From assembly GCA_964580585.1 (NCBI GenBank), contig CAZOKZ010000001.1:23261-87260 (forward strand): DNA of 64,000 nucleotides, given 5' to 3'. Below the pieces are notes generated by a model, which was not told the DNA's origin, searched no databases, and saw only the letters and a list, made by a program, of their open reading frames with translations. Positions within the stretch are counted from its first letter, which is position 1. Each line of letters opens with the position of its first letter. The position numbers and the translations under genes were made by a program. Origin of the DNA: an uncultured Candidatus Sumerlaeota bacterium (GTDB taxonomy: Bacteria; Sumerlaeota; Sumerlaeia; SLMS01; JAHLLQ01). Of the stretch, positions 10,774-55,373 are shown in pieces.

Positions 10774-12023
10774 CGTCTCCGTCCCCTTCGCGCACGCCGG
10801 CATTGTGGCCGCTGATACTTGCGCTGGTGTTTACCGTCGCCGCGCTCGTTATATTGTTTTGGCTACGTGGACGCGTCGTGAAAGAGGAGAAAGCCTTCCT
10901 TGCCTATTCTGTGCGACTCTTTGAATTGTCGGATGCCCTGCGCCGACCGGAAAACGACTCGGTGCGGTTCTCTCAGATCGAGTCCATCGCACGTAGTATC
11001 GAAGAACGCGATTTGATCGCCCATTTGCTCGTGAGTAAAAATACACAACAACGCCAAGAAGTGTTGCTTTACCCGTATTATTACGATCTCGCACATCCAA
11101 ACTGGAGCAATGAGATTTCCCAATATCAACGATTGACCATTGGTGAGGAAAACACTCCTCGCGGGTGGATTTACGTGCGCCTGAATCCCGCCAATCGCCA
11201 AGCCATCGACCGCGTTATTCTGGCATTCAGCGCCTTGATGGTTTTTTGTCTCGGCGCATTGATTTTCCGCCAACGCGGCAAAGAAACTGAGCTACATCGC
11301 ACAGTTTCAGAACTTGAGCAACGTCGGGCGGAAGTCATCCGACTCGAACGGCTGGCGTTGGCCGGACAACTCTCCGCCAATATTTTTCACGATATCAAAA
11401 AACCGGTTCTGAACATCAAGCACGAGGTCACCGACGCGCTCGATATGGGCCATTCCAGCGAGGAAACCCTTCGGGCGGTACATGAACAAACCGAGTTGTT
11501 TTTGAAAATGTTGCGCGAATTGGGTTTTGAACAATTCGTGCGCGCAGAAACCGAAGAAGGCGAATATTGCGATGTACCAGAAATGGTCGAACGTGCATTG
11601 TCCCTGGTGAAGTATGAACGCGGCGATGTGGAGATTGAAATTGATGTGCCAAACGATGGTTCGTTGCCGTTGATATTTGCTTCGCCGCATCGCCTGATTC
11701 AGTTATTTTCCAACCTGATTTTAAATGCTTACCAGGCAATGGATGGCAAAGGAGTCCTGCGGATTCGCGCAACATTGGAAGACAAAAACATCGCTCTTCA
11801 ATTCGATGACAATGGCCCGGGCATCGATCCTGAACTGCGCGAAACGTTGTTCGATCCATTTGTCACGACAAAAAGCCACTCCGAAGGTTCTGGCCTTGGT
11901 TTATACATTTGCGCGAAAATCGCTGCCGATTTGCACGGCGAACTGGTTCTGACGAATTCATCCTTCGAGCAAGGAACTGGATTCAAGATTGTGCTTCCCG
12001 GGTTGCAACCAGAGTCCATATGA
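10770..12023 (+). CDS. Sensor histidine kinase (TM helix, HisKA and HATPase_c domains).
   Basis: H-box LALAGQLSANIFHDIKKP; N, G1, G2 boxes (DDNGPGID, GSGLGL); ATGA overlap with the upstream gene. Confidence 0.8.
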   Translation: MTSPSPSRTPALWPLILALVFTVAALVILFWLRGRVVKEEKAFLAYSVRLFELSDALRRPENDSVRFSQIESIARSIEERDLIAHLLVSKNTQQRQEVLLYPYYYDLAHPNWSNEISQYQRLTIGEENTPRGWIYVRLNPANRQAIDRVILAFSALMVFCLGALIFRQRGKETELHRTVSELEQRRAEVIRLERLALAGQLSANIFHDIKKPVLNIKHEVTDALDMGHSSEETLRAVHEQTELFLKMLRELGFEQFVRAETEEGEYCDVPEMVERALSLVKYERGDVEIEIDVPNDGSLPLIFASPHRLIQLFSNLILNAYQAMDGKGVLRIRATLEDKNIALQFDDNGPGIDPELRETLFDPFVTTKSHSEGSGLGLYICAKIAADLHGELVLTNSSFEQGTGFKIVLPGLQPESI

Positions 12024-12074
12024 AGTTACCTTGAAAGAGTGGGATTTTGGATCCAATTCTGGTGGTTGGTTAAC

Positions 12075-13547
12075 ATGACAAACAGCAGCACAAACCCTTA
12101 TCAACGACTCGACGTGTGGGAAACGCTCAAAGCCCACGTGCTCGATCACGTGCCGCGATTACTGGAGCACGTGCCAGACAAATCGCGCGCCGATTGGAAA
12201 CGTCTGCCGCTATTCGAGGCTCAACTGTTCGCGGCAATGGTGTTGCTTGATTTAGACGTGGAAAGCTCTTCGCTTCGGCGCCAGGCGCGTTCGTTTTTGA
12301 AAGAGTTGAAGGACGAAGAAACTGCTCAAACACCCGCATTCGGTGTTGTGCGCGAATCTTCTCCCACGTTTGTGGAAAAATTGACTCCCACTAAACGAAA
12401 AAAAGTACAGCAATTGATCGCCGCTGTTGAGGCGAATCCTCCAGGAGCCTTTTTGGCTGACGTGTCGGGCCCACAAGCCGCCGTTAGATGGGTGGGTCAG
12501 GAAATCAAACATCTCAATGGACTCAAAGCGCATCGTTGGCTGGTTGCCTTGGGCTATCCGATGGCGGTGCCCGATGCCGCCCGGCAACGGTTTCTGATGC
12601 GCATGGGCTGGATGGGAACAGAATCAGGTTCAGGCGATGAAAAACGTGCGCAAACGTTGGAGTCGCTTGAGGTGTTGGCGCATGAAGTTGGCGCAACGTT
12701 GAGTGAAATCAACCTTGTGTTAGGAGCATTTTGCGGGTCGGGTGGTGAAATTGCGCGCCAGGCAGCGCGCTGCCTGGGAGTCCCCAAATGTCCGCAATGT
12801 CCACTTGCCAAACATTGCACCTACTACCGGTTGCGCGGGAAAGAAGTCCGCTCACAGAACCGCAGTCTGGTGGCTACCACCCGCAAAGAGCAGCGCCCAC
12901 GTGAACGGTTGGCAGCTCAAGGCCCCGGAGTATTGAGCGATGAAGAATTGCTCGCCATTATTCTGCGCACTGGTGGGGGAGGACTGAACGCCATCGATCT
13001 GGCGCAGCAAATTTTACGCGAGGCCGGAACGTTCGAGCGCCTGGCTGCCATGTCGGTGGCCGAATTGGCCCGCTTTCCCGGTATGGGAGAGGTCAAGGCA
13101 ATCACAATCAAAGCGGCGCTTGAAATGGCGCGGCGATTGAAACAAAGCGGCGATGGTTCGGTGGGGGTGAAAATCAACAGTGCCCGGCGCGTCTTCGAGC
13201 GTTTACGTCCCCGATTTATCGGAGCGACAAAGGAAGAGTTTCTGGTATTGTTGTTGAACACCAAATTGGAAATTACGCGCGAAGTTCACGTTTCAACGGG
13301 AACGTTGAACCAAAGCCTCGTTCATCCCCGTGAGGTATTCAGCGAAGCAATTCGCGACGCCGCTCACGCGGTGATCTTCATCCACAATCACCCAAGCGGC
13401 GACCCCGAGCCCAGCCGGGAGGATTTTGCGGTGACGAATAAATTGGTCAAGGCGGGCGAAATCATGGGAATTCAAGTGCTCGATCATATTATCATTGGGC
13501 GCGACCGATACTATTCCTTTGCGGACGAGGGGAAATTGACCTCGTAA
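12075..13547 (+). CDS. radC: RadC/JAB-domain protein with an extra N-terminal domain of about 280 aa resembling an HhH-GPD (EndoIII-like) module, including an FCL-like Cys loop.
   Basis: C-terminal HNHPSGDPEPSREDFAVT JAMM-like motif and RadC HhH N-region (LSDEELLAIIL...); N-terminal C-x5-C-x2-C-x5-C and HhH-like LNGLKAHRWLVALGY. Confidence 0.7.
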   Translation: MTNSSTNPYQRLDVWETLKAHVLDHVPRLLEHVPDKSRADWKRLPLFEAQLFAAMVLLDLDVESSSLRRQARSFLKELKDEETAQTPAFGVVRESSPTFVEKLTPTKRKKVQQLIAAVEANPPGAFLADVSGPQAAVRWVGQEIKHLNGLKAHRWLVALGYPMAVPDAARQRFLMRMGWMGTESGSGDEKRAQTLESLEVLAHEVGATLSEINLVLGAFCGSGGEIARQAARCLGVPKCPQCPLAKHCTYYRLRGKEVRSQNRSLVATTRKEQRPRERLAAQGPGVLSDEELLAIILRTGGGGLNAIDLAQQILREAGTFERLAAMSVAELARFPGMGEVKAITIKAALEMARRLKQSGDGSVGVKINSARRVFERLRPRFIGATKEEFLVLLLNTKLEITREVHVSTGTLNQSLVHPREVFSEAIRDAAHAVIFIHNHPSGDPEPSREDFAVTNKLVKAGEIMGIQVLDHIIIGRDRYYSFADEGKLTS

Positions 13548-17163: not shown

Positions 17164-17715
17164 ATGAATAGACCAAAAATTCCAATAACGCTAGTCTTGT
17201 TTGTTCTATTTACTTTCTTTACGCTGCTCGAGATAAAGTTGATTTTCATGCTCGCCGCGTGGACCAGTTGGCCGACCACGATCCTGATTGCCATCGGTAC
17301 GGGCTTGGCCGGTTCGGTGATGGTCAAACGCGAGGGCCTGAACGTCATCACTCGGGCCAAACGGGAGCTTGCCTCGGGTCAATTTCCGGCAGAACCCATC
17401 GCCGATGGGTTAATAATTCTCATCGGTGGGGCATTTTTGATCACCCCGGGTTTGATAACCGACCTGATCGGACTTTCTACCCTCGTTGCTCCGATTCGCA
17501 AGTTATACACAACTATCCTGATTCGGTGGGCAAAGCGCAGCTTCCAATTTCGTGTTGGAACAAATGGCGGTTTCCAGGCGTTTACCAGTGGCAGAGCACG
17601 ACCGCAACATCCGCATCAAGCACCATTCGAGGGTGAACCGGAGGATACACCTCATCGTCCGACACCCTTTAAGACGGACGACGCGGTGGATGTGGAATTT
17701 CGTCGGGTCGATTAG
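17164..17715 (+). CDS. fxsA: FxsA family inner-membrane protein.
   Basis: Two N-terminal TM helices and a conserved ITPGLITDLIGL-type motif, similar to E. coli FxsA. Confidence 0.75.
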   Translation: MNRPKIPITLVLFVLFTFFTLLEIKLIFMLAAWTSWPTTILIAIGTGLAGSVMVKREGLNVITRAKRELASGQFPAEPIADGLIILIGGAFLITPGLITDLIGLSTLVAPIRKLYTTILIRWAKRSFQFRVGTNGGFQAFTSGRARPQHPHQAPFEGEPEDTPHRPTPFKTDDAVDVEFRRVD

Positions 17716-18548
17716 CCTTTTCTGCGATTAGCCTTTGCTTCTCGATAGACTGATAGCGATCGGTGAGCTCGATCAAACAACGTTTGGCTATTTTCGATCT
17801 TCACCCCGGCGGAATCTTCATAAACCGAGATGAAACGTCCCGCTAATTCAGGCGTAAATTCGTATCGCATGACAGAAAGAAACAGCTCGAACAGAGCTTC
17901 ATCGCGTTTGGCGTTGGTGATGGGCTTACCGATGCGCGTACCATCGAGATCGATCAGGCAAAAACGTTCACCGATGGCAGCGTTTTTTTCGATCGGAACA
18001 ACAGGATAAATATGATCGCTGCGGTAATCGTGGTGATATACCAACAATCCGTGTATCCATGCTGTATATTGCGCTACCTGGTCGAGCATTTCACCATCGG
18101 GCCCATTTCGATTCAACCAATGATCGAGTGGCTCCCAAGCAGGTGGCAAACCTCGCGTGACGATAAAAGTGGTTCCGTCCGGTGATTTCGCATACAAAAC
18201 CGGCTCGGGAGTCAAAACGCCCTTTTCCAACAACTCACGTCCGGCTTTCCATTCCCGCCAGGACTTTGATCCGCGAAAGAGGTTGGAAATCCGCTGGCGC
18301 AACAATCGTGGTTTCATCCGCTTGAAATACAGTTTTTCATCCTTGAAATTGGAAGCCAGCACTAACCGCGAGCGCCCGCGTTTAGCGAGCTCAATCCCGT
18401 CGGGGAGCGGTTTTTTGTCGCCTGCGTTCTGCCAGGGCAGGGATTCTGGGGCGAGGTCCTCGTAACCGTGAAGAACGTACCCTCGGAATTTTCCTCGATG
18501 CCATTCGCGAGGTTCGGGTTGAGGGCCAGTGATGGGTGGAAGATTCAT
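17712..18548 (-). CDS. Lipopolysaccharide/Kdo kinase-like (PF06293-like) protein.
   Basis: HHDYRSDHIYP ... CLIDLDG resembles a kinase catalytic loop plus DFG-like motif; weak. Confidence 0.4.
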   Translation of the reverse strand: MNLPPITGPQPEPREWHRGKFRGYVLHGYEDLAPESLPWQNAGDKKPLPDGIELAKRGRSRLVLASNFKDEKLYFKRMKPRLLRQRISNLFRGSKSWREWKAGRELLEKGVLTPEPVLYAKSPDGTTFIVTRGLPPAWEPLDHWLNRNGPDGEMLDQVAQYTAWIHGLLVYHHDYRSDHIYPVVPIEKNAAIGERFCLIDLDGTRIGKPITNAKRDEALFELFLSVMRYEFTPELAGRFISVYEDSAGVKIENSQTLFDRAHRSLSVYREAKANRRKG

Positions 18549-18662
18549 ATCGGTGGCAAGAGAGAGTAAATTTTCTTCACTTTGGCGGAGAAGAGATTGC
18601 GACGCAAGCGCTGCTCGTCAATGTTTTCCGCCTTATCTGAATTTTAGCGAAATACTCGTCCG

Positions 18663-19388
18663 ATGAAAAACGATCCACGACAAGACCCAACCGATCCTGC
18701 CTGGCGTCCGCCGGTCGATGCGACTTTGCCCTTTCCTCCCGAGGGAGAAGTGGATCACCCGAATCTGAAGGAAGTGCTCTATACTCATCTGGAGCCGGGT
18801 AAAGTCGTTGTTGACGTGGGGTGTGGCACAGGGCCGTTCGAGTATCATCGCTATGCCGCGTCGTTCATTGCGTTCGACATGTTCGAGCCTGACAATCGTG
18901 AAGGCTTGGTAGAAGATCGCGATGAATTTCGTTTGGGCAAGTTGGAGACGTTTCCTATCGAAGATGCTTCGTGCGATGCCGTTATCCTGGGATTCATTCT
19001 GGAACACGTGCCGGACCCCGCGCGTTTCATGCGAGAAGCCGAACGTGTTTTGCGTCCCGGAGGATGGTGTTACGTGGCAGTACCGCATTACCGGTCGCTG
19101 GAAGACCGATTATTTCGTCTGGCAACAACCGTAGCGGGCAGTACACGCGGTCCGCACATTCAAAAGTTTACGTTTAAAAATTTCACCGAAATGGTGCACA
19201 ATGAAACCTCGTTGCGGTTAAGCAGTTGGCACTTGTTGCGTGCGTCGTTTTTGTTCATGATGCACCCGAAGTTGCGTCCCTTTCGACGCCCATTCATTCG
19301 CACGTTGCAAGTGTTGAAAAAAATCGGTCTGGATGGATTCCACGAAGCGAATTACCAATTTTTATTTCGCAAGGCATTAGACCCCTAG
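18663..19388 (+). CDS. Class I SAM-dependent methyltransferase.
   Basis: VVDVGCGTGPF (motif I) and LRPGGWCYVAVP (post-II). Confidence 0.7.
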   Translation: MKNDPRQDPTDPAWRPPVDATLPFPPEGEVDHPNLKEVLYTHLEPGKVVVDVGCGTGPFEYHRYAASFIAFDMFEPDNREGLVEDRDEFRLGKLETFPIEDASCDAVILGFILEHVPDPARFMREAERVLRPGGWCYVAVPHYRSLEDRLFRLATTVAGSTRGPHIQKFTFKNFTEMVHNETSLRLSSWHLLRASFLFMMHPKLRPFRRPFIRTLQVLKKIGLDGFHEANYQFLFRKALDP

Positions 19389-19405
19389 AATAATACAGGC
19401 AATTC

Positions 19406-20707
19406 ATGAACGACCCACATGCCAGCCTTCGTTTTCTGACCCCGCGCAATTTGCTCGGTGTGTGGGCGGGGCTTTGTTTGTATCTGGGGATCTATTGGCG
19501 AAATCCTCAGTTGTTGTTTATTGGCACAGCGTCGTTCCTCGCACTGCTCTCCAGTATCTGGCAAGCATCACGGATGCTCCGTGACGTACGCATTGCGCGC
19601 CACCACACAGCACGCGCCTTCGAGGGCCAGTTCGTACACGTATCGCTTGAATTGGAATCGAAATCGAAGGCTCGCGAGCACTTGGTGATGTTGGAAGATT
19701 ACTTTCCACCGGGCGAAGCACTGCGCGTGAAGCACCTGATTCGTGACTCGTTTACGCGTGGAGAGCGCATAAACGTCGAGTATCTGGGCGAGATCGTCCA
19801 CCGACGCGGATTGTACACGCTCGGACCGGTGCGTCTCGAAGCCTACGATCCGATGGGGATAATCAAACGGAAACTGAAGATCGAAACGTTTACCTCGTTG
19901 TTGGTCTATCCATCTGCCGTTGATTTGCATATGACCGAATTGTTGGGCGATGGAACATTGGCGCATGTGGGTATTGAAACAACGCGACGTCCTGGAAGAA
20001 GTACCGAATATACCGGCTTACGTCAGTATCGCATTGGCGACAGCCCGAACACCATCCATTGGCGTTCGACAGCACGTGTCGGGCATTTGATGGTAAAAGA
20101 ATTTCAGGAAGACATGATGACGCATGTGTCGATCTTTATCGATATTGGGCGATTGGGACTAACCGGACTCGGCGATCAGACATCGATCGAGTACGCCATC
20201 AAGGCCGCTGCCAGTTTAGCCAAACGCGCCATCGAAAACGCCCATTATGTGCAAGTATTCGCGGTAGGGACGGAGATCGAGCATATTCCCCTCGGGTCCG
20301 GAAGCCGCCATTTGCTGATGATTCTCGACCGGCTGGCATTTTTGAAGGCTCAAGGCGATTCCGTCTTTCCGGAAACGGTGCTGCACTACACGCCGTTGCT
20401 TAAACCCGGAGGAACAGTGATTCTCGTTCTCAGTTTAACGACGCTTTCCATCGATACCATCGAACCTTTGATCGCGGCGTTGCTTTATCGGCGTTTATTA
20501 CCCGTTGTGGTGTTGATCGACGACCGCGCGTTCATCAAACTTTACCGCGAACAGGAAACGAGTCATAGTGAAGGATTGAGTATCGAAGACGCCGTGAAAT
20601 ATCTGACAGCTCAGGGAGTTCGCGTTCACCTGGTGACAAAAGCCAAGTCTCCGAAACAGGCTCTATTACAGGGTCTGGAAAGGAGTTGCCTCGCTGATGA
20701 ATATTGA
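19406..20707 (+). CDS. DUF58 (vWA-like) protein of the MoxR-DUF58-TGase class, with two N-terminal TM helices.
   Basis: Diagnostic LRQYRIGDSPNTIHWRSTAR motif. Confidence 0.7.
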   Translation: MNDPHASLRFLTPRNLLGVWAGLCLYLGIYWRNPQLLFIGTASFLALLSSIWQASRMLRDVRIARHHTARAFEGQFVHVSLELESKSKAREHLVMLEDYFPPGEALRVKHLIRDSFTRGERINVEYLGEIVHRRGLYTLGPVRLEAYDPMGIIKRKLKIETFTSLLVYPSAVDLHMTELLGDGTLAHVGIETTRRPGRSTEYTGLRQYRIGDSPNTIHWRSTARVGHLMVKEFQEDMMTHVSIFIDIGRLGLTGLGDQTSIEYAIKAAASLAKRAIENAHYVQVFAVGTEIEHIPLGSGSRHLLMILDRLAFLKAQGDSVFPETVLHYTPLLKPGGTVILVLSLTTLSIDTIEPLIAALLYRRLLPVVVLIDDRAFIKLYREQETSHSEGLSIEDAVKYLTAQGVRVHLVTKAKSPKQALLQGLERSCLADEY

Positions 20708-21920
20708 ACTGGACGAGGAACAACCATCGCGTAAGACGGTACGGTTTACCGCGTCGCAATGTGACCTTGTGCACCGCCTGGTCGTGGCGTTGATGTGTTA
20801 TTGTGCGCTATCGATTGCATTCTGGGAATCTGGCGGATGGATGCATCCTGCGGTATATTTTTTCCTCACGTTATGTATCGGTGGATTGTACGTTGGACGT
20901 AAATTGGGTATGCTGATGGTGGAGTTTTTCGCCCCCTTTCAGTACCGTGAAAAGTTTGCCCTGTTCCTGGGTCATCTGGTGCTGATGGGAATACCCTGGT
21001 ATCTGGGATTCAAAGGTTGGAACTATATCTGGAGCGTGTTACTGGCACTGCAATGCGGGCAAACGATCAACCGTGTTGTTTTTGGACGATTGTATGCCGT
21101 TTCCTTCCTTCTTCTATTCGGCCCTCTTTGTTCTGGAATCCAGCCGCCGTTTGTTTTCGTGACGAGTTGGATGTTGTTTTTGTTGCTGGCAATGCGTTTG
21201 AAGTTTTTAAATTTCCGTCTGTTGGAAAGCCGACATCCAGGTCGTTCTCTGGCATTTTGGGAGAGTATCCGTTTCACAATCCCCTCTGTCTTTTTGCCAT
21301 GGACCGCCGCGGTAGCTTTGTACTTCTGGTTCGCAGTGCTATTGCAGGGAAAACTGCGCGTTCCTCAATTCGATGAAGGTGTTTGGGGCAAAAATGCGCG
21401 CATGGGTCCCGTGGAATACAGCGATCTTATCTGGGATGCGGTTTTCATCATGGCAATCATCATCGGTCTGCTCGTGTTGATGTACTGGATCGAGCACCAG
21501 TTGCAAAAACTCCGGTCGGCGGAAGGCACCGAAATCGAAGATATGTACGCAACACATGAAGGCCGCGATGAGGTATCCGGTTCGGAGCCCAAACCGTTGG
21601 AAGAACCTTTTGGCGACGATGCGCGTGGACGAATTTTAGCCCGATTCCGTGCTTATTATCGGCAACTGGGACAAACCGGTTGGGGGCGTCGCTCAGATGA
21701 AACCGTTTGGGAATATTTGAACCGCTTGGCAACAGAGTTATTGCACAACGAACCGATACCTTCGACAATGGGACCGCTGTTCGACCGCGCGTGTTATTCT
21801 TCCGAAGCGATCAGCAACGAAGAAGCGGAGAAATTTTTGCGCGCGGCGGATGAATCGGAACGGCAAATGATGTCTGCCGTGGAAAGTAAACGCGCCGAAA
21901 AGGCAAACGAGCCGAAGTAA
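20697..21920 (+). CDS. Polytopic membrane protein with a C-terminal DUF4129-like cytoplasmic domain.
   Basis: About seven predicted TM helices; C-terminal RFRAYYRQLGQTGWGRRSDETVWEYL resembles DUF4129; overlaps the DUF58 gene. Confidence 0.5.
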   Translation: MNIELDEEQPSRKTVRFTASQCDLVHRLVVALMCYCALSIAFWESGGWMHPAVYFFLTLCIGGLYVGRKLGMLMVEFFAPFQYREKFALFLGHLVLMGIPWYLGFKGWNYIWSVLLALQCGQTINRVVFGRLYAVSFLLLFGPLCSGIQPPFVFVTSWMLFLLLAMRLKFLNFRLLESRHPGRSLAFWESIRFTIPSVFLPWTAAVALYFWFAVLLQGKLRVPQFDEGVWGKNARMGPVEYSDLIWDAVFIMAIIIGLLVLMYWIEHQLQKLRSAEGTEIEDMYATHEGRDEVSGSEPKPLEEPFGDDARGRILARFRAYYRQLGQTGWGRRSDETVWEYLNRLATELLHNEPIPSTMGPLFDRACYSSEAISNEEAEKFLRAADESERQMMSAVESKRAEKANEPK

Positions 21921-22735
21921 TGACCCCAGAATCTCCGAATACCGTTTCCACTCCTCCAGAGCAAAATTCCAACTCCTGGGAATTAATGCATGGCGATTGT
22001 TTCGATATCGCACCGAGACTTCAGCCGGAAAGCTTTTCGCTGATCTATCTGGACCCTCCATTTTTTACGGGGAAAGTCCACTCTTCACCGGAAAAAACGA
22101 ACAATGGCTTTCGAGATGTCTGGCAAAACGATATCGTCGATTTCACCGATTACCTGGGAGCGCGGATCGAACGTCTGATCCCCCTTCTAACGCCGACGGG
22201 GTCCATGTTACTTCATCTGGATTGGCATGCGGTACATTATTTGAAGGTCCGGTGCGACAAACTCTTCGGAATGCAGAATTTCCAAAATGAAATCATCTGG
22301 GCATACCGGTCGGGTGGCGGAACAAAGAAACGATACGGCCGTAAACACGACACGATTTTGTGGTACAGTAAGGGGAAAAAGTTTTGCTTCAACACAGACG
22401 AAGCCCGCGTGCCGTACGATGCAACCATTGCCGCCAAACGCGCGCACCTGTTCCATGAAAATGGCAAGGTCGCGGGGGACGTGCTCGATATTTCGCGTCC
22501 TCCGAATCATGCGCGGGAGTGGACGGGCTGGCCGACACAAAAACCCATGGCGTTGCTCGATTGGCTGACTCGCGTCCACAGCAAGCCGGGCGATTTGGTG
22601 GGAGATTTTTTCTGTGGCAGCGGCACGACTCTGGTAGCCGCCACAAATCTTGGCCGCCGCGCATTGGGTTGCGATATGAGCCTGGATGCGTTGGAAATCG
22701 CCAACAGCCGATTACGGCAATCAAAATTGGACTAA
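21920..22735 (+). CDS. DNA methyltransferase, beta class (N6-adenine or N4-cytosine; PF01555-like), apparently an orphan.
   Basis: Motif IV LIYLDPPF at the N-terminus and motif I FFCGSGTT at the C-terminus; ATGA overlap with the upstream membrane-protein gene. Confidence 0.8.
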   Translation: MTPESPNTVSTPPEQNSNSWELMHGDCFDIAPRLQPESFSLIYLDPPFFTGKVHSSPEKTNNGFRDVWQNDIVDFTDYLGARIERLIPLLTPTGSMLLHLDWHAVHYLKVRCDKLFGMQNFQNEIIWAYRSGGGTKKRYGRKHDTILWYSKGKKFCFNTDEARVPYDATIAAKRAHLFHENGKVAGDVLDISRPPNHAREWTGWPTQKPMALLDWLTRVHSKPGDLVGDFFCGSGTTLVAATNLGRRALGCDMSLDALEIANSRLRQSKLD

Positions 22736-22890: not shown

Positions 22891-24105
22891 ATGGATGAAA
22901 ATAAACCTAAAAAAACCGGATTTTTCAGCCGTCTTTTTACCGTGACGCACGCCGAGACTCCTCCGGAAACCGATGAGTCGGCAGTACTGACACCTGAGGA
23001 CGAGGCCTCCGAATCGCTTGAGGTTGCCGAAACCGTACCTGTCGCTCTCGACACCGAGAAAAAGCCGGGAGTGCTCAAGCGGTGGTTTGGCAAAAAAGAA
23101 ACCCCCGCCGAGGGCGAAATCGAAGTCGCTCCTGAGCCTGAAGCCGCTCATGAACCACCTGCCGAGCCGAAGAAGTCCTGGTTTCGGCGCCTAACCGAAC
23201 GACTAGGAAAAACGCGCCAGAACCTGATCGACAGCGTGCGTGCCGTGCTTGGCATGTCGGGCAAGCTGGACGAAGAAACGATCGAGGAAATCGAGGCGAT
23301 TTTGCTCCAGAGCGACGTTGCCATGCCCACAACGGTGAAAATTATCGATCGGATGAAGGCTGAACTACGCAAGCGCGGCAAAGAAGAAGGCGCGGAGTTG
23401 TTACTGGAGTTGTTCAAGGATTCAATCCGCGATATTCTTGCCAACGCAGCGCCGGGTTTTGAGCCCAAACCTCCTGCCGATGGCGGTCCATACGTCGTCA
23501 TGGTGGTTGGCGTAAACGGTGTGGGGAAAACAACGACAATCGCCAAGATGGCCAAGCGCTGCACCGACGCGGGGTTGAAAACAATGCTCGTTGCGGGAGA
23601 CACGTTCCGTGCCGCAGCGGTGGAGCAACTCGAAATCTGGTCGCAACGCACGGGTTGCGATTTTGCCAAGTCACCGCCGAATTCCGACGCCGCTGCATTG
23701 TGCTACGACGCGCTCCAAAAAGCCAAAGCACGTGGGTCGCAGGTGGTCTTTATCGATACAGCTGGGCGTTTGCACACCAAATCGAGCCTGATGGACGAAC
23801 TCGGCAAGATGGAACGCGTGATCCAGAAACAAATTCCCGACGCGCCGCACGAAACGCTGCTGGTGCTCGACGCCACGACGGGCCAGAACGCCATTCAGCA
23901 GGTGAAAATTTTTTCCGAGTCGGTGAAAATCAACGGCTTGATCATGACGAAGCTCGATGGCACAGCCAAAGGCGGCGTGCTTCTCAGCATCCTCGACATG
24001 CACCGCATTCCGATTACGTTGATTGGTGTGGGAGAAGGCGCCGACGACTTGCGCGACTTCGATTCTGAACAATTCGCACATGCGTTGTTTGGTGAGAGCG
24101 AGTAA
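22891..24105 (+). CDS. ftsY: Signal recognition particle receptor FtsY.
   Basis: Acidic A domain, NG domain motifs [10 protein letters not shown] and [10 protein letters not shown]. Confidence 0.9.
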
Positions 24106-24868: not shown

Positions 24869-25105
24869 GAGCGAGGTATCCTGTTGGGGCGAAAGTCAGA
24901 CGAAAGCACCGTCCAAAACCATGCCGAATGGCGTCAAGACACTTTGACGCCGTCGGGTGGATGAATTATTTAAAGATGAAAGGAACATCTGCGACCAACG
25001 TGGCTTCGATGTTTTTCAGAAAAAAAATCCATCTCCTGCAATTTTATTCCGCCGGTGCACTTGTGTCTGGTGAAGGAGCAATTTTCACGGAAGGACAGAC
25101 GAAGG

Positions 25106-26914
25106 ATGCTCTCTCGCAACAGTGAACGCTCGGACATCGATTTGGTGCGCGCCGCGCAGGGTGGCGACGACAAGGCCTACACGCAACTGGTCGATCGGCA
25201 TTTCGGTCTCGTGTACTCGATTGCATATGCCCGCATGAGCAATCGCGAGGCTGCCGAGGACTTGGCGCAGGAGGTTTTTCTCCAGGTGTTTCTGCACGTC
25301 AAGCAACTCGACACGCGGCGGAAGGTGAATTTCCCCGCCTGGGTGGCGCGTATTACGCGGAATCTGGCGTTTCACTGGCAGCGAAAAAACCAACGCCGTT
25401 CGGAGCTGGTTCCCATGGTGCCACTGGACAAGGATTCGATGCAGGTTTCCGACCACGAGACGGACCATTCACGCGACCGGATGATCGCGGCGGAACAACG
25501 CCGCGCCGTCGAGCGCGCGGTGCTGGATTTACCCGCCGATCAACGCGAAATGGTGGTGCTGCATTACACCGAGAAGTTGAGTAAAAAGCAGATTGCTCAA
25601 CGCCTCGGTATGCATCCTTCGACGGTGGGCCGCCAGATCGACCGCGCGGTTTCGAGCATGAAGGGACTGGTTCAAACGTCGCTCGAAAGCACGGCGCCGA
25701 CGTTGGCGGCTTCGGCCAAGGCACCGGTGTATGCGGCGGGGTTGATTTCTGCCGTGGCGGCCATGAACGAAGCGGCGCGCGCCAATTTGCTCGCCTCGCC
25801 AACGTTCACGTCGGCGGCTGCCCAAGCGTTCGAGACCACGAGAAATGTATCCCGTCTGTCCACCTTTGTGAAATGGCTCCTCCCAATTATCCTTTATGGA
25901 GGAACGACCATGAGTACGGCAAAAATTGTTGGTGGAATCAGTGCAGCAGTAGGTGTTTTGGTATTATCGGGAGTGGGGTACCAGTATTACGAATCGACGA
26001 AAAAAACCACCAAGTTAACCGAGATGAGTTCAGCCGTGGTGACGTCGTCGGGCGAAGTGAATGAAACCAACCCGGAAATTCGACTTTGGGTGGACTTAAC
26101 TCCCGGCAAAACATGGAAAAGCGAAACGCAAGTTGAAACAACCAGTGACGTAGAGGTGAGTTTGAAACCAGGTATTATCAAGTCGCAAACCGTCGTCAGA
26201 ACGCAAATGGCTCACCGCACGTTGCCGCCGAATCAACAAGGACAAGCGCAGGTTGAAAACCTTGTCAGTGGTATGCAAATGACGGCCGTAGTGGATGGCA
26301 AACAAGTCGATCCCAAGGAAACGGGAATGGATATCGGCAGGGCGATGGCGGGTACAAAGACCATCGATGTGATGGACAATTTTGGACGTATTGTTACATC
26401 CGTTGAAGATGACGAAACGAAAAAAGATAATATCATGACGAACCCGGCGGTTCTAGCGTTGGGAAACATCGACAGAATCGCCATGGGGGAACTGCCTGAA
26501 AAATCCGTTCGGGTGGGCGATACATGGACTCGCGTCATCAGCGCTCCTGATTTCGTCCAATTCCAGTCACGCTACGAATGCAAGTTCGACAGAATCGAAG
26601 AAACTCCCCAAGGAAGAGTTGCTGTGATTACGCGTCGCTCGGTCGTGGATTTGGATAAACCAACGCCGCTTGGGAAAATTCCGATTCCAGAAGCAGGAAC
26701 CGAAGCTGATATGACGTTTCTATCGATGACAGGTGAAACGCGCCATATTTCACGATTGCTGATCGATGAAGGCGAATGGCTGAATCACTTTGCGACAACG
26801 AGTTTCGACCTCACAACGCGAATGGACTTAACTGTTCAGGGCAAACCCATATCGATTGATATGAAAACCAGTGGCTCCGAAACACGTACAACCGAAATGA
26901 AGTACGGAGTGTAA
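25106..26914 (+). CDS. ECF (sigma-70 family) sigma factor with no stop codon before an Ala-rich linker, a single TM helix and an extracytoplasmic domain of about 310 aa of unknown fold. An internal ATG at 25910 with a GGAGGA RBS may also express the C-terminal module on its own.
   Basis: Sigma2 region (DLAQEVFLQVF) and sigma4 region (LDLPADQREMVVLHYTEKLSKKQIAQRLGMHPSTV); the ORF continues without a stop into a paralog of 27122-28132; GTG alternative start at 25055. Confidence 0.6.
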   Translation: MLSRNSERSDIDLVRAAQGGDDKAYTQLVDRHFGLVYSIAYARMSNREAAEDLAQEVFLQVFLHVKQLDTRRKVNFPAWVARITRNLAFHWQRKNQRRSELVPMVPLDKDSMQVSDHETDHSRDRMIAAEQRRAVERAVLDLPADQREMVVLHYTEKLSKKQIAQRLGMHPSTVGRQIDRAVSSMKGLVQTSLESTAPTLAASAKAPVYAAGLISAVAAMNEAARANLLASPTFTSAAAQAFETTRNVSRLSTFVKWLLPIILYGGTTMSTAKIVGGISAAVGVLVLSGVGYQYYESTKKTTKLTEMSSAVVTSSGEVNETNPEIRLWVDLTPGKTWKSETQVETTSDVEVSLKPGIIKSQTVVRTQMAHRTLPPNQQGQAQVENLVSGMQMTAVVDGKQVDPKETGMDIGRAMAGTKTIDVMDNFGRIVTSVEDDETKKDNIMTNPAVLALGNIDRIAMGELPEKSVRVGDTWTRVISAPDFVQFQSRYECKFDRIEETPQGRVAVITRRSVVDLDKPTPLGKIPIPEAGTEADMTFLSMTGETRHISRLLIDEGEWLNHFATTSFDLTTRMDLTVQGKPISIDMKTSGSETRTTEMKYGV

Positions 26915-27121: not shown

Positions 27122-28132
27122 ATGAGTAAGGCGAAAATCATCGGCGGAATCAGTACGGCAACCGGTGTTTTGGTATTATCGGGAATTGGTTATTATTATT
27201 TCGAGACAACGAAAAAGACCTCTCAATTGACCGAGATGGCTCCAGCCGTGGTCACCACCAATTCGGCGGTGTCGAACGAAAACAATCCCGCTATTCGATT
27301 GTGGGTGGATTTAGTTCCGGGAAAAACCTGGAAAAGCCAAACGAATATTGAATCTTCAAGCACAGTTCAAGGAGCGATAATCCCCGAACCCATTGAGCAA
27401 CAAACGACCATACGCATTCATTCGACACACCGAATTTTACCACCGAATGAAGAGGGACAGACACAAATCGACAACCTGATCGACGACGCTCAAATGACCG
27501 TTGTGGTTAATGGTGAAGAAGTTGATTTGAAAAGTAAAGGAGTCGATGTCATCGGTTCCATGATCGGAACCAATACTATAGACGTTGTGGATTCATTCGG
27601 AAGAATCATGTCCGAAGTAAAAGACGAGCAGCAAAACGATACCTTTATGTCTAACCCCGCCTTATTGGCATTGGGAAACATCGATCGGATCGCTCTGTGC
27701 GAACTTCCAGAAAAACCCGTTCGCATAGGAGACACTTGGACTCGAACGATCACGGTCCCGGAAATCCCAAGTCTCAATATTTTGTACGAATGCAAATTCG
27801 AGCGTATCGAAGACACTCCACAAGGCCGTGTAGCCGTCATCACGAGGTATGCCAATAGCGACCTGCAAAATCTTAATGCACCCATGGGCAAATTACCGAT
27901 GGAAGAAATCGATGGCGATGCGGACTTTACGTTTCTGGCGATGAAAGGCGAGACCCATCATATTTCGCGCTTGGCGCTCGATCAGGGGCAATGGATCGAT
28001 CACGTATCCACGACAACATCGGATGTTAAAACACGGATGGACTTTGCCTTTCAAGAGAAGCCGATTTCGATTGAAATGACAACTCTTGGTAACGAGAAAC
28101 GTGTCACAACGATGAACTATGGAGCCGAGTAG
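27122..28132 (+). CDS. Single-pass membrane protein of unknown function, paralog (about 55% aa identity) of the C-terminal module of the ECF sigma ORF.
   Basis: MSKAKIIGGISTATGVLVLSGIGYYYFETTKKT against MSTAKIVGGISAAVGVLVLSGVGYQYYESTKKT; the upstream 40 nt including the RBS is also duplicated. Confidence 0.6.
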   Translation: MSKAKIIGGISTATGVLVLSGIGYYYFETTKKTSQLTEMAPAVVTTNSAVSNENNPAIRLWVDLVPGKTWKSQTNIESSSTVQGAIIPEPIEQQTTIRIHSTHRILPPNEEGQTQIDNLIDDAQMTVVVNGEEVDLKSKGVDVIGSMIGTNTIDVVDSFGRIMSEVKDEQQNDTFMSNPALLALGNIDRIALCELPEKPVRIGDTWTRTITVPEIPSLNILYECKFERIEDTPQGRVAVITRYANSDLQNLNAPMGKLPMEEIDGDADFTFLAMKGETHHISRLALDQGQWIDHVSTTTSDVKTRMDFAFQEKPISIEMTTLGNEKRVTTMNYGAE

Positions 28133-28137
28133 AAGGC

Positions 28138-29079
28138 GTGGAACGACAATTAGAAGACGAACGCTCATTGCTAATCATTGCAGGGCCAACGGGAGTGGGG
28201 AAAAGCGCATTGGCGTTGCGGTTGGCTCGACAAACGGGGGCAGGGATCCTTTCCGCCGACAGCATGCAGGTTTATCGCGGGATGGAAATCGGCACGGCAC
28301 AACCCACGCGCGAGGAACGCGACTCCGTCCCTCATTTCCTCGTCGGTCATGTTGAACCCGGAGAAGAATACCACGTTGCGCGATTCGTTGCCGAAGCGGA
28401 AGAGGCGATTTCGCGTGAACATGCCGAAGGGCGTAAGGTGATCGTGTGTGGAGGAACGGGACTTTTTTTGCGGCACTTGCTCCAGGGCATCATGGAAGGC
28501 GCGCCGCGTAGCCCCGAAGTGCGCGCACGGTTGGAAGCGGAGTTGCAGGAACATGGTTACAATCACTTGCGTGCACGATTGCGGGCTGTCGATCCGAAAC
28601 GCGAGTCAGAAATTAACCCCAACGACGCGGTACGAGTCATACGAGCGCTCGAAGTTTACGAAGTCACCGGGGTACCGATGTCGGAACTCCACGCGCAAGA
28701 CACTGCCACCCGCCGACTCCGTCCCCATCGATACGTGGTGTTGCACCGACCGCGCGACATCATGATGGATCGTATCAATCAACGCGTGGATGCGATGATG
28801 GATGCGGGGTGGCTCGAAGAAGCGCGTGAATTATTGGCGCGCCGTCTGCCCGACGACAGCCAGGCGTGCAAAGCGCTGGGTTACCGTGAACTTTTCGCCC
28901 ACTTGCGTGAACAAAGCACGTTGGAAGCAGCCATCGAACAAATCAAACTCCTCACGCGCCGATTTGCGAAACGTCAACTCACGTGGTTTCGCGCCGTCGA
29001 AAACGCTGAATGGATCAATTTAGAATCAGAAATCACCGAAAAACGCCTGGATGATTGGGCCAGGTTTATCGTGTCCTGA
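28138..29079 (+). CDS. miaA: tRNA dimethylallyltransferase.
   Basis: P-loop GPTGVGKS; IPT family conservation. Confidence 0.9.
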   Translation: MERQLEDERSLLIIAGPTGVGKSALALRLARQTGAGILSADSMQVYRGMEIGTAQPTREERDSVPHFLVGHVEPGEEYHVARFVAEAEEAISREHAEGRKVIVCGGTGLFLRHLLQGIMEGAPRSPEVRARLEAELQEHGYNHLRARLRAVDPKRESEINPNDAVRVIRALEVYEVTGVPMSELHAQDTATRRLRPHRYVVLHRPRDIMMDRINQRVDAMMDAGWLEEARELLARRLPDDSQACKALGYRELFAHLREQSTLEAAIEQIKLLTRRFAKRQLTWFRAVENAEWINLESEITEKRLDDWARFIVS

Positions 29080-29081
29080 TA

Positions 29082-29576
29082 TTACTTTGCGTGTTCATTC
29101 AACCACGCCAACACTTCCGGCGCGTGCGATTCGCTGCCCTTTGCTTTGGGCCAATGCATGGCGATTTTTCCCAATGGATCGATAATGAACGTTTCGCGGC
29201 TGACCCCCATATATTTCCTGCCATACATCGATTTTTCAACCCACAGACCGTATTTTTCCAACACGGCATGTTCAACGTCCGCGAGCAAAGGAAAATTCAG
29301 GTCGAACTTCTCGGCAAACTTCTTTTTTGACTTGGAGTCCAGAATCGAAATTCCAAGCACCACTGCATTCAACTTTTCAAACTCAGCGCTCGTATCGCGA
29401 AACCCGCAACTTTCCGCCGAGCAGCCCGGGGTCGAGTCTTTGGGATAGGCATATAGGACAACCCATTTGCCTTTGTAGTCGGAAAGTTTGTGGACTTTCC
29501 CGTCCTGGTCGGGGAGAGTGATAGCGGGGGCTTTCTTGCCGATCATTTCGCTTAGGGGTTCGGTCTTTTTGGCCAT
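29082..29576 (-). CDS. bcp: Peroxiredoxin Bcp (thiol peroxidase).
   Basis: PxDxTPGCS peroxidatic Cys motif with a resolving Cys five residues later. Confidence 0.85.
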   Translation of the reverse strand: MAKKTEPLSEMIGKKAPAITLPDQDGKVHKLSDYKGKWVVLYAYPKDSTPGCSAESCGFRDTSAEFEKLNAVVLGISILDSKSKKKFAEKFDLNFPLLADVEHAVLEKYGLWVEKSMYGRKYMGVSRETFIIDPLGKIAMHWPKAKGSESHAPEVLAWLNEHAK

Positions 29577-29666
29577 GTAGAGTTATCCTTGCTGAGTATG
29601 GAGAAGATATGGTGCTTGAATAGTGCCGAAACCAAGTGTCGGCATCTTGGGACTGCTCAGCAACGG

Positions 29667-30236
29667 CTAACTTGCGGTGATCAGGATAGCCCACCTGCGA
29701 GACTCCGTTTCCTCCAGAAAGGCGCAGTAACCAGTCATTATCGCTGGGAGTTGACAAAGATAGGAATCTGGAGGAGCGAAACTGCTGTGCCACACGCTAG
29801 CGACCTGATGCAATGCGGCGCGCGCTTCCTTGGCAAGCGACGATACGCTGTCGGGGGAAAGGGCTCCCAAGTACTCAGTGTCTATTTCCGCAGGGGCGCC
29901 GAGATCGGCAGCAGGGGCATAGCAATTTTTTGCGAGATCAGGGATGGCAGCCATCCTCACCAGGAAGCGCTGAATTCTTAGTTCCAACTCTTTGGAAGTT
30001 CGATCCCCTAAGCTTCCTAACTCTCTCGCCAGACATTCTCCAGCCCGCCAGTTTTCCCAGAGCGAGTCTTTCGGGAGGAAGACATAGGGACGCCAGGGTT
30101 CGTGTCCCTCCTCCGTGTCTTCGTCATCGAGGAGTTCCCAGAAGAAGCCCATGGAGCCTGTGTGCTCCAGTTCGGTTCGGAACCATTTCCAGTCGATGCC
30201 ATAATAGGTTGTTTCGATTCCCATTGTGAAGAGCAT
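29667..30236 (-). CDS. Hypothetical acidic cytoplasmic protein.
   Basis: ORF of 189 aa; no recognised motifs. Confidence 0.4.
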   Translation of the reverse strand: MLFTMGIETTYYGIDWKWFRTELEHTGSMGFFWELLDDEDTEEGHEPWRPYVFLPKDSLWENWRAGECLARELGSLGDRTSKELELRIQRFLVRMAAIPDLAKNCYAPAADLGAPAEIDTEYLGALSPDSVSSLAKEARAALHQVASVWHSSFAPPDSYLCQLPAIMTGYCAFLEETESRRWAILITAS

Positions 30237-53400: not shown

Positions 53401-54132
53401 ATGACACTTGAAAATAAAGTCGTTTGGATTACAGGTTCCGCGCGACGCGTCGGCAAAACCATCGCAATCGAAGCCGCACGCGAAGGCGCCGATATCGTCG
53501 TGCATTGCAATCGTTCTCGAAATGAAGCCGAAACGACCGCTTCTGAAATTCGAGCTATCGGCTCCAAAGCCCTTGTCGTTCAAGGCGATCATGCACAGCG
53601 GGCCGATGTGGAACGCATAATAAACGAAATCGATTCGCACTTTGGACGACTCGACGCATTGGTCAATTCCGCTTCAACATTTCCAACCAAGCCATTTACC
53701 GAAATTTCCACCGAGGAATTTTCATCGACCATCGATGCGAATTTGCGTGGGCCTTTTTTGTGCGCACAACTTGCGCTCCCTCTTCTTCGCGCAGCAAAAC
53801 CCGGGCGAATTGTCAACATCACCGACTGTATGTTGCCTCGTCCCTATCCGAAATACGCTGTCTATTGGTGTGCGAAAGGCGGACTTGATGCTTTGACTCG
53901 CGCACTGGCGAGGGAACTGGCCCCGGACGTGCTCGTAAACGCAGTCGCACCGGGCCCCGTGCTCGCGCCCGATGATATCACGGAACAAAAACGTGAAAAT
54001 ACCATTGCACGAACGTACCTCAAACGGTGGGGGAAACCCGAAGACGTGGCGTGTGCAGTAATCTATTTATTGAAGGCGGAATATACGACTGGTATCTCCG
54101 TCCCCGTAGATGGGGGACGGAGTCTTGGTTAG
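53401..54132 (+). CDS. Short-chain dehydrogenase/reductase (pteridine reductase/FolM-like).
   Basis: TGSARRVG cofactor motif; YxxxK (YWCAKGG). Confidence 0.8.
   Translation: MTLENKVVWITGSARRVGKTIAIEAAREGADIVVHCNRSRNEAETTASEIRAIGSKALVVQGDHAQRADVERIINEIDSHFGRLDALVNSASTFPTKPFTEISTEEFSSTIDANLRGPFLCAQLALPLLRAAKPGRIVNITDCMLPRPYPKYAVYWCAKGGLDALTRALARELAPDVLVNAVAPGPVLAPDDITEQKRENTIARTYLKRWGKPEDVACAVIYLLKAEYTTGISVPVDGGRSLG
54095..54122. terminator. 10-bp inverted repeat CTCCGTCCCC-GTAGATG-GGGGACGGAG overlapping the 3' ends of two convergent, overlapping genes.
   Basis: Read from sequence; built from two copies of the recurrent motif. Confidence 0.4.
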
Positions 54133-55373
54133 CGTCTTTGCGGGCAATCGCCCATCATGGGCAGCTCGATGATAAACGTTGTCCCCTGAGATTCCTCAGT
54201 TTCAAAAAATATCTCACCATGGTGTTCATCGATAATTTTTTTCGTCACGGCGAGCCCAATACCCGTTCCCCCTTTGCCTTTGGTCGAATAGAAAAGGTTG
54301 AACATTTTTTGCTGAACCTCGGGTGGAATTCCATCGCCATCGTCGCTGATGCGAATCCGGATCAAACGCGCACCGCAATCCAGTTCACTTGACACACGCA
54401 CTTCGCCTTCTCGACCTGCAGGAATCGCATCCAATGCGTTGCCCGCCAAGTTGAGCAAAGCATCGAACATCGCGCTTTCATCCATCATCACAGGCGGAAC
54501 GCGATGATCCAGATTAACGACAAAATGAATATTTCGTCGGAACGCAGTGTCCTCGATTTCATGTGCTAATCGAGCGATCAACGCATTCAAATCGCCTTGT
54601 TCCAATGCGCAACGATTCTCGCGTGAGAACACGAGCATGTTTTCGACCAATGCGCGGATTTTTTCCGTGCTGCGCGCCAGCAATTCCCACCCTTGGCGAA
54701 TTTTCCCCACATCGTTGCGCTTAATTCCCGCCTCGACGAAATACGAACCGCCCATCATATTTTGCAAAACGTTCTTGATGTAATGTGCCACTTCACTCAG
54801 TGAAATTGCGATCGCCGCCAACCGTTCGGCTTCGACTTTCTCGTTATAAAGGCGGGCTTTTTCGAGCACGATGGCAATTTGTTTGGCGAGAATTTCGCCA
54901 AACACAATTTCTTCGTCTCTCCATTCATGTGGGTTGCGGCGTCGCATCGAAAGAACGCCGACAACTTCGTCTTGGATACGTAACGGCGTACACAAATAGG
55001 CCAGATATTCGCGCGCTTCCGAACTTGCAGGTTCCGGAAAATCGCGTTCGTCGTTCGACGTGTCGTTTACCGCCAACGTTTGATTTTGCAGTGCGGCCCA
55101 GCCAGCCAGGCCTTCACCCAACCGAAATCCCTGGCGCCCAAGTTCCTCGGCGCGACTCCGTCCCTGCGAAGCTTTTAATACAAGAAAGTCTCCGTCCCCG
55201 CCTTCCTTTAAATAAACAGAGAAAGTGTCTGTTTCCATCACGCGAGCGCCAATTTCACAAATACGCAACACTATCGCATCGATGGTCATTACCGAGCCAA
55301 CGGCATAACTGATCTCAAGCAGTGCTTCGGCAATCCGGCGATCATGACCAAGCGCGGAAACGGGTGAAGACAT
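54129..55373 (-). CDS. GAF-domain sensor histidine kinase, cytoplasmic.
   Basis: GAF N-terminus; H-box EVAHYIKNVLQ; HATPase N/G boxes. Confidence 0.8.
   Translation of the reverse strand: MSSPVSALGHDRRIAEALLEISYAVGSVMTIDAIVLRICEIGARVMETDTFSVYLKEGGDGDFLVLKASQGRSRAEELGRQGFRLGEGLAGWAALQNQTLAVNDTSNDERDFPEPASSEAREYLAYLCTPLRIQDEVVGVLSMRRRNPHEWRDEEIVFGEILAKQIAIVLEKARLYNEKVEAERLAAIAISLSEVAHYIKNVLQNMMGGSYFVEAGIKRNDVGKIRQGWELLARSTEKIRALVENMLVFSRENRCALEQGDLNALIARLAHEIEDTAFRRNIHFVVNLDHRVPPVMMDESAMFDALLNLAGNALDAIPAGREGEVRVSSELDCGARLIRIRISDDGDGIPPEVQQKMFNLFYSTKGKGGTGIGLAVTKKIIDEHHGEIFFETEESQGTTFIIELPMMGDCPQRR

Follow-up and report, generated by a model that had tools for sequence, protein, structure and literature searches.

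DUF58–DUF4129 Gene Pairs without a Nearby MoxR and a Solitary Beta-Class DNA Methylase in Candidatus Sumerlaeota

Gene Content of the Cluster

This study concerns four consecutive genes at positions 18663-22735 of a 64,000-nucleotide stretch of DNA, referred to as the window, from an uncultured Candidatus Sumerlaeota bacterium (assembly GCA_964580585.1, contig CAZOKZ010000001.1, positions 23,261 to 87,260 of the forward strand). Like every Candidatus Sumerlaeota genome in this comparison, the source is a metagenome-assembled genome (MAG). The original prediction, made from the sequence alone, assigned to these genes an S-adenosylmethionine (SAM)-dependent methyltransferase, a DUF58 protein, a membrane protein with a DUF4129-like tail and a beta-class DNA methyltransferase (here called the methylase), and suggested that they could form a novel membrane-associated DNA-modification or defence-like module. 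The list of open reading frames (ORFs) and Pfam searches confirmed the four genes, their positions and their domains. With two genes that flank them, they are arranged as follows.

18663..19388, + strand: class I SAM-dependent methyltransferase, 241 aa (Pfam Methyltransf_11, E 1.9e-16; Methyltransf_23, E 4.1e-15)
19406..20707, + strand: DUF58 protein, 433 aa (Pfam PF01882, E 1.7e-16)
20697..21920, + strand: polytopic membrane protein with DUF4129 tail, 407 aa (PF13559, E 1.3e-5, residues 316-384)
21920..22735, + strand: beta-class DNA methyltransferase, 271 aa (PF01555, N6_N4_Mtase, E 2.1e-42)
22891..24105, + strand: ftsY, signal recognition particle (SRP) receptor (SRP54, E 9e-73)
17712..18548, − strand: Kdo/WaaP-family kinase-like gene (PF06293, E 6.8e-15)

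The SAM methyltransferase gene ends 17 nt 5' of the DUF58 gene, which in turn shares 11 nt with the DUF4129 gene. The next junction had been read as an ATGA overlap; it is in fact TAATG, with the start of the methylase overlapping the upstream stop by 1 nt. A scan for promoters and terminators over the cluster gave a signal no different from that of shuffled sequence, a result that is compatible with a single transcript without proving one. The flanking genes include the Kdo/WaaP-like kinase, FxsA and FtsY, identified by Pfam, and a RuvA-like ORF assigned by eye; there is no restriction enzyme-like gene among them. All four cluster proteins are singletons at 90% identity in a collection of 15 billion proteins, and exact look-ups of the methylase and of the DUF4129 protein retrieved no contig. 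Among homologues with names, the closest come from Candidatus Sumerlaeota/Sumerlaeia MAGs, which agrees with the stated source.

The DUF58–DUF4129 Membrane Pair

The DUF58 protein scores 60.5 bits against a Pfam cut-off of 23.4. Its AlphaFold model, with a predicted local distance difference test score (pLDDT) of 86.9, starts with two helices (residues 13-31 and 34-56) laid out as a transmembrane hairpin, followed by a beta-sandwich and a VWA-like alpha/beta domain. Foldseek matched this model to complement C3/C3b chains and to VWA domains (Rpn10, vWF A3 and TFIIH chains) with E values of 1e-5 to 1e-7. For the overlapping gene product of 407 residues, a hydropathy scan indicates about 6-7 hydrophobic segments within residues 24-262, and the AlphaFold model (pLDDT 71) contains about 8 long helices and, C-terminal to these, a helical bundle. 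Foldseek of this model against the PDB found nothing with an E value below 1. The DUF4129 match is marginal (25.6 bits against a Pfam cut-off of 24.8) and recurs in relatives. The predicted overlap of DUF58 with a polytopic membrane protein carrying a DUF4129-like tail is borne out by these data.

Homologues of the DUF58 protein fall into 62 clusters, and those with names are nearly all from Sumerlaeota. The DUF4129 partner is represented by 53 clusters at E<=1e-30; a first genome scan using this protein alone gave no match. The two proteins are encoded by a conserved, overlapping two-gene unit that is specific to this lineage. In the mechanism that we propose, the N-terminal hairpin of DUF58 would act as a membrane anchor, with the DUF4129-tailed polytopic protein as its partner. 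The two most likely form a membrane complex by VWA-mediated protein contacts. We infer that the VWA-like domain and the DUF4129 tail are the parts involved and that both face the cytoplasm, an orientation suggested by a Lys/Arg-rich stretch after the last transmembrane helix. Neither protein matched any PADLOC-DB v2 family at E<=0.01, and PADLOC together with Foldseek of both models revealed no DNA-binding or defence-like feature in either of them.

The genes beside the pair are repeatedly of envelope- or glycan-related type (window 17712-19388; locus L090, 468-1292; L092, 4501-5865; L125, 6824-8089). They comprise the Kdo/WaaP-like kinase with the SAM methyltransferase, a sulfotransferase that overlaps DUF58 in L090, a DegT aminotransferase and a Wzt-type ATP-binding cassette (ABC) ATPase. 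This recurrence hints, if weakly, that the pair has a role in the envelope. In L125 (GCA_964269675.1, contig CAXWOS010000012.1) the DUF4129-family gene at 10957-12574 is split across two frames, with hidden Markov model (HMM) matches at 10957-12375 and 11873-12574. L126 and L127 carry this locus intact, and the split in L125 either stems from an assembly frameshift or marks a pseudogene.

Absence of MoxR from the DUF58 Loci

The DUF58 family is usually taken to be a co-factor of MoxR. Distant DUF58 loci from the same metagenome scan served as controls. AAA_3 (MoxR) lies directly upstream of DUF58 in 7 of the 7 canonical loci checked with Pfam, and 14 more control loci contain an ORF with a MoxR-type Walker A no more than 1.4 kb upstream. 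One control locus, L094, holds the full triad, with TgpA_N, Transglut_core and DUF4129 encoded downstream. The expectation that DUF58 proteins normally occur in MoxR triads thus holds among the controls, and MoxR, DUF58 and transglutaminase have been described together as a canonical triad (PMC12067865).

Neither an HMM of 7 MoxR proteins verified by Pfam nor tblastn with those proteins detected a MoxR in the 64-kb window, as predicted, or in the flanks of the related loci. Within the available flanks (up to 10 kb in relatives), none of the 10 loci that represent this DUF58 subfamily has a MoxR (window, L008, L086, L090, L001-L004, L092 and L125-L127). The same 10 loci also contain no transglutaminase core. 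The absence of a nearby MoxR is a fixed trait of the subfamily. A narrow Walker-A regular expression was dropped as a test for MoxR because it overlooked true MoxRs with (D/E)-[VI]-P-G-x-G-K-[ST]. Loss of the metal ion-dependent adhesion site (MIDAS) was likewise rejected as the cause of MoxR independence, since DxSxS is also missing from MoxR-linked canonical DUF58 proteins in the alignment.

The closest parallels are the MoxR–DUF58–TgpA operons, such as the bifidobacterial PFNA cluster and the mycobacterial moxR1 operon. These share with the pair the hairpin, beta-sandwich and VWA layout of DUF58 and the succession of DUF58 and a membrane protein ending in DUF4129. In contrast, the pair has no flanking MoxR, and its 407-residue member gave no Pfam match to Transglut_core or TgpA_N; in an hhalign comparison with TgpA-like proteins the DUF4129 tail alone aligns (E 3.6e-5, probability 71%). 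The pair may therefore be viewed as a putative pared-down relative of these systems, in which the linked MoxR and the transglutaminase core would have been lost or were never present. A DUF58 subfamily without a linked ATPase or partner transglutaminase is relevant to the question of which functions DUF58/VWA proteins can perform when MoxR is absent.

A Solitary Beta-Class DNA Methylase

The methylase reaches 146 bits against a PF01555 cut-off of 26.7 and covers positions 2-220 of the 221 model positions. DPPF (motif IV, residues 45-48) precedes FFCGSGTT (motif I, residues 230-237), as had been noted for this PF01555-type enzyme, and both motifs are conserved in 23 homologues, among which DPPF is invariant and most motif I residues are invariant or nearly so. 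A profile search of the PDB placed M.BceJIV (8URK) on top with an E value of 1.3e-32 and M.RsrI, M.MboIIA and CcrM behind it, all aligned over long stretches; N4-cytosine enzymes align with the methylase profile around motif I only. Given DPPF in motif IV and closest solved relatives that are N6-adenine enzymes, the methylase is predicted to make N6-methyladenine (m6A) at a short chromosomal motif, with no cognate restriction enzyme.

The enzyme stays below the NCBIfam equivalog cut-offs for CcrM (NF050803; 59.9 vs 830 bits) and for the YhdJ type (PRK11524; 112 vs 292 bits), and judged by these scores it belongs to neither family. M.BceJIV and the compact solitary beta-class enzymes of the E. 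coli YhdJ type (PRK11524) are likewise single-domain proteins of about 270-280 residues with DPPF/Y before FxGSG. The methylase aligns end to end with M.BceJIV, which also has no restriction partner, but the relationship to this type is distant and the methylase represents a separate clade. M.BceJIV of Burkholderia cenocepacia is described in a preprint as an orphan m6A epigenetic regulator (bioRxiv 10.1101/2024.01.20.576384). CcrM of Alphaproteobacteria is comparable as a lineage-wide, solitary beta-class adenine methylase amid housekeeping genes, but its PDB chain has 366 residues compared to 271 here, and the best aligned stretch spans profile positions 10-158.

Orthologues with 51-64% identity occur in 8 other genomes, 4 of which are titled Sumerlaeota (L006-L009). 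The neighbouring genes encode FtsY most often, and otherwise DnaK, FtsH, the ATPase of a type II secretion system, a trypsin-like protease, a HEAT-like protein or a small membrane protein. The ftsY gene lies directly 3' of the methylase in 5 genomes (window, L008, L086/L087, L088 and L089) and one gene off in L009. No restriction enzyme is encoded beside the methylase in these 9 genomes (the window and the 8 with orthologues), in agreement with the predicted orphan status. A 226-residue protein upstream of the L007 methylase was considered as a restriction enzyme; it is a membrane protein. The methylase is conserved about as well as the NG domain of FtsY, and the named members of its clade are mostly Sumerlaeota. 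A phage origin of the orthologue clade is unsupported, as the best relatives on viral contigs reach at most 45% identity.

A solitary methylase that is stable throughout a lineage is the pattern of epigenetic regulators such as Dam and CcrM. The occurrence of orthologues in 8 other genomes, usually just 5' of ftsY, suggests by analogy that this enzyme may be a housekeeping or epigenetic methylase after the manner of Dam, CcrM and M.BceJIV. Its lineage-wide retention fits the conservation of orphan methylases reported in an earlier study (PMC3424554). Candidatus Sumerlaeota appears to retain one solitary beta-class adenine methylase at a stable ftsY-side position. The enzyme is thereby a concrete candidate for epigenetic work on the phylum and for binning by methylation motif.

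Gene Order across Relatives

The order DUF58–DUF4129–methylase is present in 4 genomes, with reading-frame overlaps of 1, 4, 4 and 26 nt. The genes on either side of this trio are as follows.

Window: SAM methyltransferase upstream of DUF58; FtsY downstream of the methylase
L008: FxsA upstream of DUF58; FtsY downstream of the methylase
L086/L087 (GCA_020444065.1): ribonucleotide reductase on the opposite strand upstream of DUF58; FtsY downstream of the methylase
L090/L091 (GCA_028284075.1): sulfotransferase upstream of DUF58; amidase on the opposite strand downstream of the methylase, no ftsY

All relatives that carry a name are Candidatus Sumerlaeota MAGs; the genes flanking L001-L004 gave no taxonomic placement of these loci. 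In L008, a Sumerlaeota MAG, the synteny with the window extends over ZapA, a coiled-coil protein, a metallophosphoesterase, FxsA, DUF58, DUF4129, methylase and FtsY, and its FtsY is 75% identical to that of the window. Conservation of the predicted gene order across genomes was thus found for the trio in 3 genomes beyond the window; it never included the SAM methyltransferase, and elsewhere the pair and the methylase occur apart.

The pair is present without the methylase at 7 distinct loci (L001-L005, L092 and L125-L127). Downstream of the pair in L001-L004, L092 and L125-L127 are RNase PH, threonine dehydratase, DegT aminotransferase or an ABC transporter. Conversely, 5 genomes (L006, L007, L009, L088 and L089) have the methylase without the pair. 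Assembly GCA_964269675.1 carries both units on separate contigs, with methylase–ftsY on CAXWOS010000005 (L088) and the pair on CAXWOS010000012 (L125, with intact copies in L126/L127). In L088 the methylase is connected through overlapping starts with an unrelated HEAT-like gene and with ftsY, which means that overlap reflects the gene packing of this lineage and is not evidence of coupling. A 390-residue protein upstream of the L088 methylase was examined as a diverged DUF4129 partner and rejected; it is a soluble helical-repeat protein without an HMM match.

Typing by the NG domain of FtsY, which covered 3 of the 4 genomes with adjacent pair and methylase (window, L008 and L086), separates two groups. 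The window, L008 and L086 share 68-75% identity, and in each of them the pair adjoins the methylase, while L088, L089 and L009 share 72-75% identity and none has the pair at the methylase; identity between the groups is 59-64%. By this measure the adjacency tracks one sub-clade. Another Sumerlaeota MAG (prefix PWP23) encodes a DUF58 protein 57% identical to that of the window and a longer methylase homologue (389 aa, 47% identity). The locus tags PWP23_1567 and PWP23_3190 are far apart, and this MAG is possibly a further genome with pair and methylase unlinked.

The Upstream SAM Methyltransferase

The original prediction counted the SAM methyltransferase as a member of the operon. The gene does lie directly upstream of DUF58, but tblastn found no homologue in any related locus, and it is a window-specific neighbour outside the conserved units. 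In L008, FxsA directly precedes DUF58 and the Kdo/WaaP-like kinase is not part of the syntenic block; in the window, the kinase and the SAM methyltransferase fill this FxsA-to-DUF58 interval. NCBIfam gives weak matches below cut-off to small-molecule methyltransferases only, and the substrate is probably a small molecule or an envelope component.

Independent Units or a Coupled Module

These observations lead us to regard the cluster, with reasonable though not full confidence, as three independent units: a stray SAM methyltransferase, a lineage-specific DUF58–DUF4129 pair and a solitary, phylum-conserved methylase that are neighbours by inheritance. The adjacency and overlap of the pair and the methylase would represent the inherited synteny of one sub-clade with a compact operon layout, and would not imply obligate coupling. 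The proposal of a new DNA-modification or defence system is not supported by these data: the units of the cluster are separable and the pair is without a PADLOC match. The prediction itself had named an unconserved gene order, combined with a CcrM-like housekeeping methylase, as the outcome that would speak against the module; this outcome was found only in part, since the trio keeps its order in 4 genomes. Several points weigh against three independent units. The order and the overlaps of the trio survive in 4 genomes in which all upstream flanks differ, and in L090 the trio is intact although ftsY is gone; such persistence amid changed flanks typically marks an operon under selection. Methylase distances correlate weakly with FtsY distances (r 0.37, not significant), a result that does not demonstrate strict vertical inheritance. 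As both units appear confined to one phylum, their genes might be functionally linked even where they lie apart. Finally, a MoxR or a restriction enzyme may be encoded beyond the 64-kb window. The persistence of the trio is also the main argument for the view that, in this sub-clade, pair and methylase are one translationally coupled functional module, in which, for example, the pair might anchor the methylase at the membrane or control it there, or tie envelope state to DNA methylation. The lack of any internal terminator or promoter above the shuffled background points the same way. We nevertheless consider such a module improbable: each unit is conserved alone elsewhere, the two reside on separate contigs in GCA_964269675.1, their adjacency follows FtsY phylogeny, the methylase also overlaps unrelated genes in L088, and neither membrane protein model has a DNA-binding or defence-like feature. 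The more specific proposal, that a MoxR-less DUF58/DUF4129 complex is coupled by overlapping translation to the solitary adenine methylase of the phylum in one sub-clade, is a long shot. If true, this coupling would amount to membrane-linked control of chromosome methylation, for example with envelope state tethering or gating the enzyme. To our knowledge, a membrane-linked arrangement of DUF58/DUF4129 and a methylase has not been described before.

Two further explanations concern the single units. The methylase might be the modification half of a restriction–modification system with its endonuclease encoded elsewhere or decayed. Its PADLOC matches are to generic methyltransferase models only, the best of which are Type II methyltransferase models (E 4.6e-57). 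Related enzymes with at most 45% identity occur on viral contigs and in many phyla, palindromes are strongly avoided in the window (GTCGAC, 0 observed vs 19.4 expected), and published work on orphan methylases names decayed restriction–modification systems as a possible source of many of them (PMC3424554). The orthologues with 51-64% identity, however, hold their ftsY-side position across a deep divergence (FtsY NG identity 59-75%), no restriction-like gene is adjacent in the 9 genomes, and the palindrome avoidance is peculiar to this window and does not extend to relatives with an orthologous methylase, all of which makes this origin very doubtful. The pair, in turn, could be an ordinary MoxR client whose moxR is encoded elsewhere. 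This explanation concerns MoxR independence only and is compatible with three independent units. It gains from the limited extent of the inspected DNA (the 64-kb window and, for relatives, flanks of up to 10 kb) and from the DUF58 architecture of hairpin, beta-sandwich and VWA domain, which matches that of MoxR-linked DUF58 proteins of about 420 residues. We consider it rather unlikely, though a serious contender, because the contrast between a linked MoxR in all 7 Pfam-checked controls, with a Walker A ORF in 14 more, and none at the 10 loci here amounts to a family-wide loss of linkage.

A Repeated 10-mer and Avoided Palindromes

The recurrent motif TCTCCGTCCCC had been put forward as a possible target of the methylase. 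It is indeed over-represented in the window, where its 10-mer core CTCCGTCCCC occurs 14 times against 0.08 expected, at the following positions.

CTCCGTCCCC, + strand: 9882, 10777, 28717, 52308, 53021, 53364, 54096, 55190, 63011, 63522
CTCCGTCCCC, − strand: 44787, 45457, 54113, 56200

There is no copy of TCTCCGTCCCC in the cluster or in about 150 kb of loci with an orthologous methylase or pair, which makes it unlikely as the methylase target. The absence of CTCCGTCCCC from these related Sumerlaeota loci indicates that the repeat is genome- or lineage-specific. Its flanks are not conserved. The inverted copies at 54096 and 54113 form a hairpin where the ends of the convergent ORFs 53401-54132(+) and 54129-55373(-) meet. 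The 10-mer could be an uptake-sequence-like motif or one resembling repetitive extragenic palindromic (REP) elements.

Expected palindrome counts were taken from a maximal-order Markov model over window positions 1-64000. Besides GTCGAC, this model identifies TTCGAA (10 vs 36.9 expected), CTCGAG (6 vs 21.1) and GGCC as depleted. Relatives carrying the orthologous methylase do not show the depletion of GTCGAC, TTCGAA or CTCGAG. We therefore discarded palindrome avoidance as a clue to the methylase target, since the depletion is window-specific and not common to the orthologue genomes. It suggests genome-specific restriction pressure from systems encoded outside the window.

Other Features of the Window

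The cumulative GC skew climbs to about 29-30 kb of the window and then drops (region around 28000-30000). This turn could correspond to the origin or terminus of replication or to the boundary of a rearrangement. As read from their translations, the genes at 25055-26914(+) and 27122-28132(+) are tandem paralogues. In the first product, an N-terminus resembling an extracytoplasmic function (ECF) sigma factor is fused to a transmembrane segment, with a domain of about 330 residues at the C-terminal end; the transmembrane segment and this domain recur, highly similar, in the second.

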